6,280 nucleotides of DNA from a virus (lineage: Duplodnaviria; Heunggongvirae; Uroviricota; Caudoviricetes). Made by a program: the position numbers and the translations under genes. The stretch lies in IMG/VR virus record IMGVR_UViG_2690315994_000034; one strand, given 5' to 3'. The notes under the pieces are model-generated. The model was given only the letters and a program-made list of their open reading frames with translations, did no database searches and was not told the DNA's origin. Below, one piece after another: positions 1 through 6,048 of this stretch; positions within the stretch are counted from its first letter, which is position 1, and each line of letters opens with the position of its first letter.

Positions 1-852
1 TTAACCGGCTTCGTTTTGACAGGTTGCCGGTCTTTCTTTTTTCACTTTCGCCAGTTCTTCCGCAGAGTAATGCGACGCGACATCCAGCCGTCGAAGCCCC
101 ATTTTGATGTACTCGCTGTTGATCTCAATACCAATGAATTTTCGTCCGCTGGCGATGGCTACGGCACCGGTAGTAAAGCTACCAGCAAACGGGTCGAGAA
201 CGATATCGCCTGGGTTGGAAGAGGCGAGAATAATGCGTTTCAGTAAGGCTTCCGGTTTTTGCGTCGGGTGGTTTTCATATTCATCCATCAAATAACGCAC
301 GCGCGGAAAATCCCAGACGTTACCCGGTACTTTTTGATGATTGTAAGGCTGTGGAGGATTTTTGCGATAATCGATCAACGCGCGCTGCGATCCGGTTTTG
401 GCTTCTACCAGAATAGCATCACCGTTGAATGTGTAGTTCTTTGCGTCTTTCACCATCATCAGGATGGGTTCGTACATGGAGCCGTAGTGTTTTTTCGCCT
501 GCACTCCAGAACTGTCATATGACCAGACGATGCGACTTTTGATGGTAAAAAGCTTGCGGCACTGGAGATCGATAAAGGGCATGTTTTCCGTACTGTTCAT
601 GATGTACATGCTGCCCTGCTTTTTCAGAACGCGGTGGCACTCTGCAATCACTTCTAACAGCCAGTCGATAAACAGATCTTCTTTCCAGGCTTCGATCAGA
701 CCATCAAAATTTTTACCGATGTTATACGGTGGGTCGGCAAAGATCAGATCGACGCTTTCAGTAGGTAGCTTTTTAAGTTCGGCAAGGGCATCACCGTGAA
801 TAATGGTCTTAGCTTCATTACCAAACCGGGTCGGTTCACATCCTGTTCTCAT
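1..852 (-). CDS. yhdJ: DNA adenine methyltransferase YhdJ-like (complete, 283 aa)
   Basis: Reverse-strand ORF with stop TAA at 1-3. Likely true start is ATG at 850-852 (protein begins MRTGCEPTRFGNEAKTIIHGDALAELKK), preceded by AAGGGAG 5 nt upstream; the ORF-track start at 916-918 is a TTG giving a 22-aa extension. Contains the DPPY motif (IFADPPYNIG) and an AdoMet-binding-like LDPFAGSFTTG segment typical of N6-adenine/N4-cytosine methyltransferases. N-terminus matches my recollection of E. coli YhdJ. Confidence 0.9.
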   Translation of the reverse strand: MRTGCEPTRFGNEAKTIIHGDALAELKKLPTESVDLIFADPPYNIGKNFDGLIEAWKEDLFIDWLLEVIAECHRVLKKQGSMYIMNSTENMPFIDLQCRKLFTIKSRIVWSYDSSGVQAKKHYGSMYEPILMMVKDAKNYTFNGDAILVEAKTGSQRALIDYRKNPPQPYNHQKVPGNVWDFPRVRYLMDEYENHPTQKPEALLKRIILASSNPGDIVLDPFAGSFTTGAVAIASGRKFIGIEINSEYIKMGLRRLDVASHYSAEELAKVKKERPATCQNEAG

Positions 853-876
853 GGTCACTCCCTTTGTGACACCTAT

Positions 877-914
877 AAAAAAGGCGCTTCCCCATGCCGA
901 GTAGCGCCTTTTAA
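877..914 (-). terminator. Rho-independent terminator, probably the fis terminator
   Basis: Stem GGCGCT (883-888) / AGCGCC (903-908), extendable by A:T pairs to 10 bp, 14-nt loop. On the minus strand the stem is followed by TTTTTT (complement of 877-882); on the plus strand by TTTT. Lies between the fis 3' remnant and the yhdJ start. Confidence 0.55.
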
Positions 915-936
915 TCAAGCAATTAGCTAACCTGAA

Positions 937-2347: not shown

Positions 2348-2380
2348 ACTGATATTGCGGGCCTAGGTCGGCCAACCGAA

Positions 2381-2402
2381 AAGCGGGAAACCCTACCCGC
2401 TT
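2381..2402 (+). terminator. Hairpin between integrase and next gene; weak terminator candidate
   Basis: AAGCGGG (2381-2387), 8-nt loop, CCCGCTT (2396-2402); flanked by a partial outer palindrome GCCAA..TTGGC. No T tract follows, so terminator function is doubtful. Confidence 0.25.
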
Positions 2403-2440
2403 GGCTCGCAAATTAATTTAGGGGCGTTGAGGGCAGCGCA

Positions 2441-3370
2441 ATGGCTAACGACATTAAAATACCTTTTCAATACTGCAATATTGAACGTGCGTCGAGATTG
2501 CTGGGTTGTGAGATTAGCGACCTGATTAATTTAGGTGTTACTAAAAAAATATCTTTATGTCTAAATTTGTTTGATGCTCGCGCTGTTTTATATATGAGAA
2601 CTGACAGCAAATCTGCATGCGACTGGTTCGATACCAGAAAGGCAAACTCCACCACATCCATGATGGGAAACAATATTACTGAATTTTCCAGGCTTCATCT
2701 CTACAGATGCGATTACAATGAGGAAACGGAAGAAACGATTCACGTGCCTTTATTTGGTCAAGATACAGAAAATGGGTGTTTCAGTTCTATTGGTAAGGCT
2801 TATGGGTTGTGGCGTCTTTGGAGCGGATTAGAAGAGCTACAAAATTTTGGAGAGTATGCCCTAAGTGGTTTTGAATTAACCCCGTGCCATCCAGAAACTG
2901 ATAATCCCGCCGTACAGCTTTTAATGGTTGGCGAAGATAGCGATTATGATGAAGAAGACGATCAAGTATTCAAAAATAAAATCTCTATAAACGATTTGTG
3001 GATTACTGCTCAGGATATAAGGCGGCTCCTTGACTGTGGTGGCGATTATTTCACGCTGACAGATGATATTGAATTTGTAGAACCTCATAAGATGAATGGC
3101 AATGAAATTGTTCATCATTCTGCTGAAAGACATGCAAGAAATCGAGAGCAAATTTTAATGGTAGCCATGCGCTTCAAAGAAGAGCAGCAAAATGCTTTTA
3201 ATGAGAGTTGCAGAAAAACAGATGGAACTATTAACTATTCTGCCTGGGCCCGTGAGTTGATCGCCAGACCTGACTGGTTCATCAATGGTGAATTGCCAAT
3301 AAAAACAGAAACGAAAATAGCAGCAATATTAAACAATGCGCATAAGAGGCCGAGCGAAAGAACACAGTAA
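2441..3370 (+). CDS. Hypothetical protein, 309 aa, function unknown
   Basis: ATG at 2441 with GAGGG 7 nt upstream; stop TAA 3368-3370. Noticeably AT-richer than flanking genes (first 60 nt are about 37% GC). Contains acidic patch GEDSDYDEEDDQ and two helix-turn-helix-like stretches (IERASRLLGCEISDLINLG and ISINDLWITAQDIRRLLDCGG). No catalytic motif recognised. Confidence 0.65.
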   Translation: MANDIKIPFQYCNIERASRLLGCEISDLINLGVTKKISLCLNLFDARAVLYMRTDSKSACDWFDTRKANSTTSMMGNNITEFSRLHLYRCDYNEETEETIHVPLFGQDTENGCFSSIGKAYGLWRLWSGLEELQNFGEYALSGFELTPCHPETDNPAVQLLMVGEDSDYDEEDDQVFKNKISINDLWITAQDIRRLLDCGGDYFTLTDDIEFVEPHKMNGNEIVHHSAERHARNREQILMVAMRFKEEQQNAFNESCRKTDGTINYSAWARELIARPDWFINGELPIKTETKIAAILNNAHKRPSERTQ

Positions 3371-3813: not shown

Positions 3814-4524
3814 ATGAAAAAGATTAATGCCCTCAACGGGCAGGGATTCGCTCACCCTGAAGCCAGCCAGAGCGATATTTTAATTAATCACAAATCGGAG
3901 CCGCGTATCGATTCCCGCGTTATTTCAGAGCGAGCCGGAATACAACATGAAAGCCTAAGCGCGACGATTAAATCGCACCAGAGCAGATTGCGCGAGCTGG
4001 GATCACTGCCTCGTCAGTCACTCAAGGAATTAACCGATTTGAAATCGGGAAAATCCGGCCGAAAGCGTGGGCGTCCTGAGATTAGTTATCTGCTGAATGA
4101 GCCGCAGCTCGACTATCTGCTGCGTATCACCCGAGGGCGTGATCCTGAGCGTATTAACCAGTTCAAACTGGATGTTACGAAGGCATTCACTAAGCGCCGC
4201 GCCGCAGAACCTATCCGCCGTGAGTACCTGCCTGGCTATCACGAAAGCCGCGACAGATTAAAAGCTCTGGGCGCACAACGGCACCATTACATCAATCTGG
4301 CCCGCGCTGAAAACCGCGTGGCTGGTTTGTCTGATGGTGAACGCGGTACCGCAGACGAACAGCAATTGGGGCTGTTGGTAGTGATGCAGAAAATCGAACA
4401 GGCGGCCTTTAATGAGGCGGTGCGTAATGACATGAGTCCAGGCGATGCGGTGCGTGAGGTTGCCCGCCGTATGGATGCGTTCGCCAGCCTGATCACTTCA
4501 TCGTCAGTGTTGGAGATTCGCTGA
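3814..4524 (+). CDS. Rha-family phage regulatory protein-like (236 aa)
   Basis: ATG 3814, stop TGA 4522-4524. Segments DSRVISERAGIQHESLSATIKS and ISYLLNEPQLDYLLRITRGRDPERINQFKLDVTKAF resemble the Rha N-terminal domain as I remember it (..TSSR.IAE.FGKRH..VLR.I.. and ..GY.LT..GF..L.M.FTG..A..FK..YI.AF..). Confidence 0.65.
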   Translation: MKKINALNGQGFAHPEASQSDILINHKSEPRIDSRVISERAGIQHESLSATIKSHQSRLRELGSLPRQSLKELTDLKSGKSGRKRGRPEISYLLNEPQLDYLLRITRGRDPERINQFKLDVTKAFTKRRAAEPIRREYLPGYHESRDRLKALGAQRHHYINLARAENRVAGLSDGERGTADEQQLGLLVVMQKIEQAAFNEAVRNDMSPGDAVREVARRMDAFASLITSSSVLEIR

Positions 4525-4546
4525 TGCGTCTTATGCCTAAAATTTT

Positions 4547-4568
4547 GCGCTCCCCCGTTTGGGGGCGC
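4547..4568 (+). terminator. GC-rich hairpin just downstream of the Rha-like gene; weak terminator candidate
   Basis: GCGCTCCCCC / GTTT loop / GGGGGCGC, 23 nt after the stop. No clear T tract on the plus strand (TCAAATCC follows). Confidence 0.25.
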
Positions 4569-4663
4569 TCAAATCCTTGTGAGTTAGCCGCGTGCTATTT
4601 GCATAACTCAATCAGGGTTGCGCAGAATTTGAGCCGACGAAATTCGCACGTACAAATTAACCG

Positions 4664-4680
4664 CGTACGTTTAACGTACG
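4664..4680. promoter_or_regulatory. 17-bp palindrome CGTACGTTTAACGTACG; candidate operator
   Basis: Perfect 8-bp arms around a central T; contains two CGTACG hexamers; a further ACGTAC at 4648-4653. Same core as the palindromes at 5247-5286. Confidence 0.4.
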
Positions 4681-4832
4681 GACATCTCAACCCATTGAAT
4701 CATTTTGATTATCGCGAAACGCGAGAATTGGCGAGCAACGAACACGAACAGTATTCGGGTTCTCCTGAACATCAACACTGCTTAGGTTCAGAGGTTCCGA
4801 CGAAAAACGTAGAGAGCTGCGAAGATAACCAA

Positions 4833-4847
4833 CCCTCTTTAAGAGGG
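4833..4847 (-). terminator. Candidate terminator of the leftward RHH/small-peptide operon
   Basis: Palindrome CCCTCTTTAAGAGGG. On the minus strand the hairpin is followed by TTGGTTATCTT, and it lies 33-47 nt downstream of the small-peptide stop. Confidence 0.3.
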
Positions 4848-4879
4848 CCAGTTAAAGGCATTACAGGGAGTAACCCTGA

Positions 4880-5032
4880 TCAGCCATTTTTACAGCCTTT
4901 CAGTACATCGCCAGGGTTAACGGAACAGTCAGGCTTCCAAAGCGAATCGAAAAAACCGAATTGGTACAAAATCCATAAAATAATTAGTGCAATGAGAATG
5001 CGACCTGGGAGGGTATGTAACAGCCAGTTCAT
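4880..5032 (-). CDS. Small single-pass membrane peptide, 50 aa (not in the ORF track)
   Basis: Hand-translated minus strand: ATG at 5030-5032 preceded by GAAGGAG (5041-5047) with 8-nt spacing; stop TGA at 4880-4882. Product MNWLLHTLPGRILIALIILWILYQFGFFDSLWKPDCSVNPGDVLKGCKNG has an 18-residue hydrophobic stretch and a short polar tail with two Cys. Starts 21 nt after the RHH gene stop. Confidence 0.5.
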   Translation of the reverse strand: MNWLLHTLPGRILIALIILWILYQFGFFDSLWKPDCSVNPGDVLKGCKNG

Positions 5033-5053
5033 TATTTTATCTCCTTCTGAAAT

Positions 5054-5245
5054 TCAACCTTTTGGCTCTATGCCGCGCCGCTTTAGTTCTGCCCTAGCTA
5101 ATTCTTTAAACCAGTTACCAAGGGTTAGACCGTCAGAAGTTGCCGCCTCATTTACTTGTTGGCGTAGCTCTTTACTGATTCTGATTTGGAAGGTTGGAGA
5201 CCATCCCTCACCGCGTGGCGATTTATCGCGCTTTAATGTTGACAT
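5054..5245 (-). CDS. Ribbon-helix-helix (Arc/MetJ/CopG-like) DNA-binding protein, 63 aa
   Basis: ATG at 5243-5245, only possible start (in-frame TAG upstream); AGGAG 12 nt upstream. PTFQIRISKELRQQVNEAATSDGLTLGNWFKELARAELKRRG fits strand / helix / G-x-T turn / helix of RHH repressors, compared by eye with P22 Mnt and Arc. Confidence 0.5.
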   Translation of the reverse strand: MSTLKRDKSPRGEGWSPTFQIRISKELRQQVNEAATSDGLTLGNWFKELARAELKRRGIEPKG

Positions 5246-5267
5246 GTACGTACGTAACTCCTATTAT
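5239..5267 (+). promoter_or_regulatory. Near-consensus sigma70 promoter, rightward
   Basis: TTGACA (5239-5244), 17-bp spacer, TATTAT (5262-5267); predicted start near 5274. The -35 box overlaps the RHH start codon on the opposite strand. Confidence 0.5.
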
Positions 5268-5286
5268 CATTGCTGTTACGTACGTA
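5247..5286. promoter_or_regulatory. Twin palindromic operator candidates TACGTACGTA x2
   Basis: Identical 10-bp perfect palindromes at 5247-5256 (inside the promoter spacer) and 5277-5286 (at the predicted transcription start), spaced exactly 30 bp. Confidence 0.5.
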
Positions 5287-5303
5287 CAATATCAGTAGGT
5301 ACA

Positions 5304-5346
5304 GTAAAAAGCAAAGCCCCGCAAGTGTCGTTACCACTCGCAGGGC
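5304..5346 (-). terminator. Strong hairpin, terminator-like on the minus strand
   Basis: GCCCCGCAAGTG (5316-5327), loop TCGTTAC, CACTCGCAGGGC (5335-5346): 12-bp stem with two mismatches. On the minus strand it is followed by TTTGCTTTTTAC; on the plus strand by TTCTAACC (poor). Lies in the leader between the promoter and gene 5385-5588. Confidence 0.4.
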
Positions 5347-5384
5347 TTCTAACCACCAACGATAGAAAGCGTATCGAGGTAGCT

Positions 5385-5588
5385 ATGAGAAATCATACCA
5401 CACACCCGCAAGGGCGGGACTCGCACAACCTGAATAAATACATCTGGCGTTTTATCGCCCTGAGCACGGCACAACCGCGCGTGATTACCATTGAGGCCAC
5501 CAGCGAACAGGAAGCACGCCAGCAATCTCCGGCTGGCTGCGTGATGGTATTCGCTGCCCGTATTCGTCAGGGGTCACATCATGCGTAA
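5385..5588 (+). CDS. Small protein, 67 aa, ends in ARIRQG motif; possibly Ash-like/Icd-like
   Basis: ATG 5385 with GAGG 5 nt upstream; stop TAA 5586-5588 overlaps the next ATG (ATGCGTAA). Shares YxWRF..EATSEQEARQQ..FAARIRQG with the C-terminus of the next ORF. The family name is a vague recollection, not a verified match. Confidence 0.55.
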   Translation: MRNHTTHPQGRDSHNLNKYIWRFIALSTAQPRVITIEATSEQEARQQSPAGCVMVFAARIRQGSHHA

Positions 5589-6048
5589 AAACCGCTTGCA
5601 AAAAATTATCACGGGGCTGTATGCTTCCCCCGTCGCCCACATGGCGACCGGGTTTGACAGCCTGAATACATCTGGCGGACAGCCGCCCACATCCGATAAG
5701 CGGTTTTTTTGTGTCCGTAAACCTACCCATACCCGCATTATGGCGGGGCGTAACGGGGGAGCCTTTGTGCTCGCTGGTTTCCAGATGACCAGTCTGTCAA
5801 CCCTGTTACGTCTCGCCACCATGTTTGACAGCGTAGTAGCGAGACTCCTTAAAATTCATCTGGGAGCCTTTCACATGGCTGTATCCGCACGCCCTTATTT
5901 TGTCTGGCGCTTTATGCAGTGCCAGGAAAAACAAACCTCACTCTTTACCGTCACGGCAGCAACAGAACGCGAAGCCCGCGCCCAGCTGCCGCACGCACAT
6001 CTGATTTTTGTCGCCCGTATTCGTCAGGGGGAAACCTATGCACAATAA
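5581..6048 (+). CDS. Protein of 155 aa whose C-terminal 50 aa are paralogous to the preceding gene
   Basis: ATG 5581 overlaps the upstream stop and sits 7 nt after GGGG, the same arrangement as the next junction at 6038. C-terminus YFVWRF..TAATEREARAQ..FVARIRQG. N-terminal 98 aa are compositionally odd (R/G/S/T-rich), so the real gene may start at ATG 5875 (57 aa). Confidence 0.45.
   Translation: MRKNRLQKIITGLYASPVAHMATGFDSLNTSGGQPPTSDKRFFCVRKPTHTRIMAGRNGGAFVLAGFQMTSLSTLLRLATMFDSVVARLLKIHLGAFHMAVSARPYFVWRFMQCQEKQTSLFTVTAATEREARAQLPHAHLIFVARIRQGETYAQ

Follow-up and report, generated by a model that had tools for sequence, protein, structure and literature searches.

What two small minus-strand genes, one for a 63-amino-acid (aa) protein and one for a 50-aa peptide, do for the element that carries them is the question raised by the viral record IMGVR_UViG_2690315994_000034, a stretch of 6,280 nucleotides (nt) that was analysed at its full length and is called the window here. 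Its gene order and left flank identify the window as a phage satellite of Escherichia coli, of the P4 or phage-inducible chromosomal island (PICI) type, inserted beside yhdJ. An earlier note, made from the letters of the window, had described the pair as a leftward operon for a ribbon-helix-helix (RHH) DNA-binding protein and a membrane peptide, and had likened its layout to toxin-antitoxin, abortive-infection, superinfection-exclusion and kil-type modules. The picture that we favor, with a probability of about 0.6, is that of a satellite repressor with an RHH fold followed by membrane cargo made in the dormant state, both genes being nested antisense within a long plus-strand open reading frame (ORF) resembling eta of P4.

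The two minus-strand genes and their products

Direct reading of the minus strand and the ORF list agree that the two-gene leftward unit of the earlier note is real. The RHH gene (5054..5245, minus strand) ends with a TGA at 5056-5054, and 21 nt separate this stop from the ATG (5032-5030) of the peptide gene (4880..5032, minus strand). The ATG follows, after a spacer of 8 nt, the Shine-Dalgarno (SD) sequence GAAGGAG (5041..5047, minus strand), which is kept in every locus carrying the P0001 or P0002 form of the peptide. The GC content is 42.5% in the peptide gene and 47.4% in the RHH gene. The TGA of the first gene and the ATG of the second also lie in the same frame, 24 nt from start to start, and read-through of the stop would fuse the two products; the shared frame is probably a mere by-product of a constraint on frame.

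The peptide has few relatives. Among 5.8 billion protein clusters, a search retrieved the identical sequence, one 84% variant (P0002) and nothing else, and an HMMER scan of 1.84 billion cluster representatives added one true new relative, P0003 (49 aa, E = 1e-12), along with three false, low-complexity matches in long proteins. By BLASTP, P0003 shares about 53-55% identity and 74% similarity with the peptide, and its flank had no match to E. coli. Scans of viral and metagenome contigs with a peptide pattern gave nothing, a genome scan with such a pattern found Rahnella perminowiae only, and zero matches were obtained by tblastn against phage records or, at E <= 0.1, by family searches in Pfam, NCBIfam, PHROGs and PADLOC. 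No copy of the peptide has an NCBI or UniRef record, and gene callers and RefSeq leave it unannotated. Going by these searches, the peptide matches no known family and is new to the databases. The earlier note could not place the pair in a known family from sequence alone, and for the peptide this view is supported; the RHH protein is Arc-like by predicted structure.

Conservation of the small ORF in related elements, whose absence had been named earlier as a refutation, was found at the level of the protein, with saturated synonymous and low non-synonymous change across three variants. Between the window and the Rahnella type, the ratio of non-synonymous to synonymous substitution (dN/dS) was 0.33. 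Between the window and P0003 (locus L010), at 56% nucleotide identity, the proportion of differing synonymous sites (pS) was 0.975 and that of differing non-synonymous sites (pN) was 0.28. Alternative frames were worse or contained stops, and the BLOSUM62 score per site was 2.92 in the peptide frame compared with 1.40 in the overlapping plus-strand frame. These selection tests rest on three haplotypes. Residues that do not vary are G10, R11, the helix core, Y23 and the tail motif G.FDSL..PDCS.NPGD..K.C, and the homology between window-type and Rahnella-type sequences extends from inside the 3' end of the RHH gene up to the stop codon of the peptide gene.

The same data bear on whether the 50-aa ORF might be non-functional, the block being kept by the plus-strand ORF or by a DNA or RNA signal. 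A maintained ORF of 354 codons does cover the peptide gene on the opposite strand, annotation passes the gene over, and hydrophobic short ORFs commonly arise by chance: 3 of the 28 other short ORFs in the window are more hydrophobic than the peptide. The peptide stands above chance because it is conserved as a protein in other elements, and not from its hydrophobicity alone. Neither the low pN at saturated pS, nor the higher BLOSUM62 score in the peptide frame, nor the stops in other frames would be expected of such a block; moreover, homology ends at the ORF's stop codon, and the segment gained or lost among related loci, described below, is exactly the SD site plus the ORF. We consider it very unlikely that the ORF is not a gene, and its pattern of substitution identifies the 50-aa peptide as the product of a real gene, selected as a protein.

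As the earlier note had read it, this product is a membrane-type peptide with a single helix and a cysteine-containing tail. It has one hydrophobic stretch, with a maximal 19-residue Kyte-Doolittle mean of 2.08 (2.0-2.2 across all three variants), and AlphaFold2 placed a helix at residues 8-24 and modeled the tail with low confidence. The tail holds Cys36 and Cys47, both conserved, and direct reading of the sequence found no lipobox or cleavage-type motif. These features suggest that the peptide probably spans the inner membrane once, with its N terminus inside, its C terminus outside and Arg11 on the cytoplasmic side. In this orientation, the motif FDSL..PDCS.NPGD..K.C would be periplasmic, and Cys36 and Cys47 would be able to form a disulfide loop. 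MgrB- and Hok-type small membrane proteins have about 50 aa and one N-terminal membrane helix. The likeness of the peptide to them is one of architecture only, namely a length of ~50 aa, an N-terminal helix and a short tail with two cysteines 11 residues apart, the topology and the disulfide being predictions; it differs from them in its genetic context, and it has no match in Pfam, NCBIfam or the PHROGs.

The first gene codes for an RHH DNA-binding protein, also in agreement with the earlier reading. RefSeq labels a 98-99% identical version of it hypothetical, and sequence models gave sub-threshold matches to HicB-RHH (PF05534), YlcI/YnfO and an Arc-like PHROG, with 18.2 bits against PF05534 (cut-off 21), 20.7 bits against NF041551 (cut-off 30) and E = 1.9e-4 against the Arc-like phrog_228. 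A PDB search with a sequence profile of the RHH alignment gave chance matches only, none of them significant. The AlphaFold2 model, built on 16 homologues, consists of an extended segment followed by helices at 25-37 and 42-56, with a core confidence (predicted local distance difference test, pLDDT) of 86-90. Residues 17-56 of this model form the RHH fold, and the rest of the protein is a low-confidence tail. When the model was compared with the PDB by Foldseek, all top matches were RHH proteins, with P22 Arc at the head of the list (1myl; probability 1.00, target template-modelling (TM) score 0.84) and PutA, CopA_SO, AmrZ, CopG and ParG behind it. The predicted structure is that of an RHH protein, and homologues occur in Escherichia, Salmonella, Edwardsiella, Citrobacter, Morganella and Klebsiella. 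Compared with locus L008 (75% protein and 67% nucleotide identity), the gene had a pS of 0.84 and a pN of 0.17 (pN/pS = 0.21); the low pN relative to pS indicates that this protein, too, is under selection.

The slot behind the RHH gene

Among its six distinct contexts, the peptide gene always lies 21-24 nt behind an RHH gene, and this RHH gene is not always the same one. At least five RHH alleles precede it (in the window, L004 and L005; in L002; in L006; in L003 and L007; and in L010 and L011), sharing only their C-terminal helix and tail (..ELxxRGIEPKG), a tail that is also found in loci without the peptide. In two such peptide-less loci, L008 and L009, the RHH stop (..AAAGGCTGAAC) is joined directly to AGGGTTACTCCCCGTAATGC, a sequence that in the window comes after the stop of the peptide gene (..AATGGCTGATC AGGGTTACTCCCTGTAATGC). 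These matching junctions indicate that the insertion or deletion comprises exactly the SD spacer and the ORF, 174 nt in all, between short GGYTGA repeats. The flanks of this 174-nt unit align between the window and both loci.

Two hairpins follow the peptide stop on the minus strand (4826..4878, as 4878-4864 and 4854-4826) and form the probable end of the leftward transcript. The second of them (4854-4826) has a stem of 13 base pairs and lies in a 101-nt fold with z = -3.5; together with the sequence beyond, it is also present behind the RHH stop of L008 and L009. Another terminator-like hairpin of the minus strand, CGTACGTTAAACGTACG followed by a T-rich tail, is found at 4664-4680, where a spacer separates the peptide gene from the Rha-like gene.

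Other genes occupy the same position. Behind the same RHH gene, the slot contains a gene for a 41-aa basic protein in L013 (1372-1497, minus strand) and one for a 119-aa SWIM zinc-finger protein in L014 (1110-1469, minus strand), and in L001, again with the same RHH gene, it is empty. All four cargo genes seen share the reading frame of the RHH gene. In this pattern of presence and absence, the peptide gene behaves as a moron that occupies a cargo slot and not as an obligate partner of the repressor gene. Prophage morons behind a repressor gene are exemplified by rexA and rexB of lambda, in the order cI-rexA-rexB. The likeness lies in an optional gene placed between the repressor stop and the terminator, present in some and absent from other, similar elements, and presumably expressed in the dormant state. 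The present case differs in that the cargo peptide, of 50 aa, belongs to a family not yet described, that the operon is nested antisense in another ORF, and that the cargo is in the frame of the RHH gene.

This distribution speaks against the toxin-antitoxin or abortive-infection layout suggested earlier, a type II-like pair in which an RHH antitoxin would neutralise, or merely repress, a membrane-damaging toxin of 50 aa. The gene order, with a small RHH gene first and a small hydrophobic peptide second, does resemble that of such modules, and the Prokaryotic Genome Annotation Pipeline (PGAP) often calls close homologues of the RHH protein 'HicB family antitoxin'. However, the two genes are not co-inherited. 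Among 5426 complete E. coli genomes, 30 have a gene of the window's RHH type at a coverage of 80% or more, and a single one (strain AF39, NZ_OZ547136) has peptide DNA, there behind a different RHH gene of 57 aa. The variety of alleles ahead of the peptide, and the presence without it of the only part that they have in common, point the same way. The name given by PGAP appears to rest solely on the weak, below-threshold match of the RHH segment to PF05534. The 63 aa suffice for the DNA-binding fold only, and the protein lacks both the N-terminal domain of HicB and a toxin-neutralising domain. No adjacent HicA or other toxin family was detected with Pfam or NCBIfam, and PADLOC gave no match. Accordingly, we regard a toxin-antitoxin or abortive-infection pair as unlikely.

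The shared tail raises the possibility that the peptide takes part in regulation. It could, for instance as a sensor or anchor in the membrane, modulate the RHH protein or link derepression to envelope events when a helper infects. The peptide is found solely behind RHH genes whose products end in ..ELxxRGIEPKG, as this idea would have it. Yet the same tail is present in loci with unrelated cargo or with none, and most such switches work without the peptide, making a regulatory role quite unlikely; we retain the view of the peptide as separable cargo.

Promoter, putative operator and the antisense ORF

The assignment of the RHH protein as a repressor comes from the DNA at its start codon. A promoter scan of 4400-5700 found a sole strong promoter-like site, a predicted sigma-70 promoter at 5239..5267 on the plus strand (TTGACA-17-TATTAT, 11 of 12 consensus positions) that would serve the icd-like/C4/primase operon. 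Its -35 overlaps the RHH start codon. The octamer GTTGACAT (5238-5245), unchanged across five RHH types, doubles as the -35 hexamer and as the start codon and next codons of the RHH gene (ATG TCA AC), and the sharing of these bases accounts for the conserved M-S-T/N start of the protein. A repeat search revealed a putative operator on the same DNA, an inverted repeat of two perfectly matching 14-nt arms (TGTACGTACGTAAC / GTTACGTACGTACA) set 16 nt apart (5245..5288). One arm (5245-5258) is within the promoter spacer and the other (5275-5288) just past the -10, such that together they bracket the -10. At the same place, between the -35 and the transcript start, the repeats vary by RHH type, and the same arms are found where the DNA-reading beta-strand of the RHH protein is the same (the window, L001 and L008). 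Type-specific repeats in this position are the signature of a repressor family whose operators, presumably bound by the cognate proteins, differ by type. Because of the promoter overlap and the geometry of the operator repeats, the 63-aa protein is most likely the satellite's repressor, which would bind this repeat and repress the operon, and not an antitoxin.

The closest parallel among known repressors is provided by Arc and Mnt, the RHH repressors of P22 immI. The small RHH fold is common to both systems, with Arc as the best structural match, and in both a repressor gene lies divergent from an antirepressor- or immunity-type operon, with operator repeats overlapping the promoter. In P22, the membrane exclusion gene sieA adjoins mnt, and SieA is a protein of 162-164 aa with three helices and its own promoter (PMC10883804). 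The satellite differs in that there is no significant sequence match to the P22 proteins, the operon is of the P1/P4 type, with an icd-like gene and a C4 RNA, and the peptide is unlike SieA. A comparison with the HicB antitoxin turns up, on the side of likeness, the weak match of the RHH segment to PF05534.

To the right of the promoter, a terminator-type hairpin of the minus strand with 15 pairs (5313..5349, with a T-run to about 5303) separates the RHH promoter region, of which it is just upstream, from the start of the Icd-like ORF. It is kept in every variant, and both arms of its stem vary among the variants, as judged by eye. We found no minus-strand promoter to the right of this hairpin.

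Both minus-strand genes lie opposite a plus-strand ORF of 354 codons (4524..5588), and the promoter at 5239-5267 is also within it. The ATG of this eta-like ORF overlaps the stop of the Rha-like gene as TGATG, and the ORF ends, in frame, with a nested Icd-like ORF of 67 aa (5385-5588, plus strand; NCBIfam phage_ICD_like, 69.8 bits). Its frame contains 0 stops in 117 + 46 non-genic codons, most other frames having 2-10, and the product of the shuffle probabilities for its openness over the non-genic stretches of the window is 6e-5. Non-homologous sequence of L001, L009, L013, L007 and L010 gave products of 2e-4 to 3e-3. Among 11 distinct loci, the frame is open in nine (the window, L001, L002, L007-L010, L013 and L014); the ORFs have 235-469 codons, begin at the end of the upstream alpA or rha gene and finish as the Icd-like ORF, and the first ATG of each is preceded by a GGAG-like site. 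Within the genes, antisense openness is not improbable per gene (P = 0.16-0.83 by synonymous resampling), and the case for the ORF rests, as a consequence, on the non-genic stretches. On this evidence, the eta-like ORF is clearly kept open. The earlier note had named homology to a gene on the other strand as grounds for giving up the small gene; these grounds apply only by half, for a kept-open ORF does span both genes, but substitution patterns show the minus-strand frames to be those selected as proteins. The plus-strand ORF as the selected coding frame in place of the minus-strand genes was rejected on pN/pS and BLOSUM scores.

The ORF resembles the eta/kil region of P4. As described in the part of PMC10111431 that summarises Forti et al. 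(1999), P4 has a long ORF coupled to an upstream alpA homologue, with a constitutive internal promoter and a nested terminal ORF, and translation of the long ORF stops termination of late transcripts. The satellite has a long ORF that starts upstream of an internal promoter, is coupled to the preceding gene and contains a nested in-frame terminal ORF, just downstream of which are a C4/CI-family RNA and its targets. It differs in that the ORF is coupled to a Rha-like gene and not directly to alpA, and in having the repressor operon antisense inside. We know of nothing comparable to such a nested antisense repressor operon in P4. When searched by tblastn against 50,697 phage records (E <= 1e-3), the 67-aa Icd-like product matched a single, unrelated record and not P4. 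The resemblance to P4 is one of architecture and of the shared C4/CI RNA, not proven homology, and anti-termination by the eta-like ORF is predicted by analogy.

A proposed two-strand switch and the satellite around it

Taken together, these features suggest the following mechanism. The RHH protein, as a dimer or a dimer of dimers, would bind the 14-nt repeat around the -10 of the divergent rightward promoter, shutting off the icd-like/C4-RNA/primase operon and probably also its own overlapping promoter. The peptide gene, inserted with its own ribosome-binding site between the repressor stop and the terminal hairpins, would share the transcript of the repressor gene and be expressed in the dormant satellite. 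AlpA acts as an activator (PMC6092414), and helper-dependent activation of alpA and rha would lead to translated read-through along the eta-like ORF. Such read-through would meet the repressor operon head-on, pass through it and reach the icd-like/C4/primase operon, translation of the eta-like ORF protecting the transcription on its way into the replication operon.

For the peptide, an accessory role at the membrane in the dormant state seems most likely, and keeping competing phages from entering is a plausible form of it. Of the layouts named earlier, an exclusion-type accessory role (superinfection exclusion or abortive infection) would fit. The expected dormant-state expression, the predicted membrane location and the conserved cysteine loop that would lie outside would accord with action at the membrane, against incoming phage or on a membrane protein of the host. 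Of our confidence in the overall picture, a minor part, somewhat under a third, depends on the phage-entry role. The kil-type layout mentioned earlier would make the peptide a kil- or lysis-type effector that, after induction, blocks cell division or damages the membrane in aid of the satellite or its helper. Behavior of this kind is frequent among small hydrophobic peptides of phages, and the element already has Icd-like ORFs, which are of the division-inhibitor type. The peptide gene, however, is outside the induced operon: it follows the repressor gene after 21 nt on the same strand and is convergent with the alpA/rha and icd-like units that are induced, and the rightward transcription after induction would be antisense to it. 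With no match to holin, Kil or Hok families in Pfam, NCBIfam or the PHROGs, an effector of this type is highly improbable.

Several points weigh against the picture of a repressor with dormant-state cargo nested in an eta-like ORF. The peptide family is tiny, with three 90% clusters and about 25 contigs, and PHROG, PADLOC and tblastn searches of phage records showed no similarity of the peptide to known exclusion or defence proteins. Third codon positions coincide in the peptide and eta frames, such that the selection signal is partly shared between them, and the eta-like frame is broken in 2 of the 11 loci (L006 and L012). Neither the promoter scan nor reading by hand found a convincing leftward promoter for the RHH gene. 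Finally, the terminator-like hairpin of the earlier note holds up as a fold, with two hairpins after the stop, but the U-tract of the second is weak (AUCUUCG) and a simple terminator scan missed it.

A more far-reaching form of the proposal, which we hold tentatively and consider doubtful, is a head-on switch between the two strands. Dormant leftward expression would give repressor and peptide, translated rightward read-through would silence their operon by collision or antisense pairing and drive replication, and cargo would enter only in a frame that keeps the opposite strand open. The peptide would then be the first of a new family of satellite membrane peptides with a disulfide loop that target phage entry or a membrane protein of the host.

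The locus is a concrete candidate for a small RHH repressor that varies between elements, each type having its own operator repeats at the promoter of the replication operon. The cargo slot behind the repressor brings to light proteins that annotation has passed over, among them a conserved membrane peptide of 50 aa without a database record. The principle of P4 eta/kil seems to be extended to these satellites, with a whole antisense operon nested in the ORF, and this arrangement makes both the dual-strand coding constraint and the convergent-transcription switch directly testable. Since the peptide is rare, it is of limited practical importance unless it turns out to have a clear phenotype; more unusual than the peptide is the nested architecture of the two strands.

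The remainder of the window is in keeping with a satellite. At its left end is yhdJ, for an adenine methyltransferase (1-918, minus strand), 98% identical to the E. coli gene, which 5424 of 5426 genomes possess; this flank identifies E. coli as the host and places the satellite beside yhdJ. There follow, from left to right, a tyrosine integrase gene, an int-alpA RNA directly after the integrase stop (2356-2424, plus strand; Rfam, 61.2 bits, cut-off 35.8), and genes for a 309-aa protein, AlpA and the Rha-like protein. The 309-aa protein (2441-3370, plus strand), whose gene has a low GC content of 39.6%, had zero matches in Pfam and NCBIfam and matched only phrog_7144, of unknown function. To the right of the Rha-like gene are the two minus-strand genes, the first Icd-like ORF, the C4-RNA targets (Rfam c4-a1b1 at 5619-5668, 46.8 bits, cut-off 46.7), the C4 antisense RNA (Rfam, 5736-5823, 72.6 bits, cut-off 45) and a second Icd-like ORF. 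Related loci go on with DUF4222, a primase or helicase, SSB, PerC and a capsid gene. Gram-negative PICIs are laid out as an integration zone, a Bro/immunity-RNA zone and a replication zone (PMC10111431), and the gene order in the window and its relatives fits this Gram-negative PICI or P4-like layout.

A sub-threshold match to isrK is located at 5632-5710. The second ORF with an Icd-like end (5581-6048, plus strand) starts 8 nt before the stop of the first and crosses both the C4 target sites at 5619-5668 and the C4 RNA gene at 5736-5823, an overlap similar to that of P4 kil/eta with cI.

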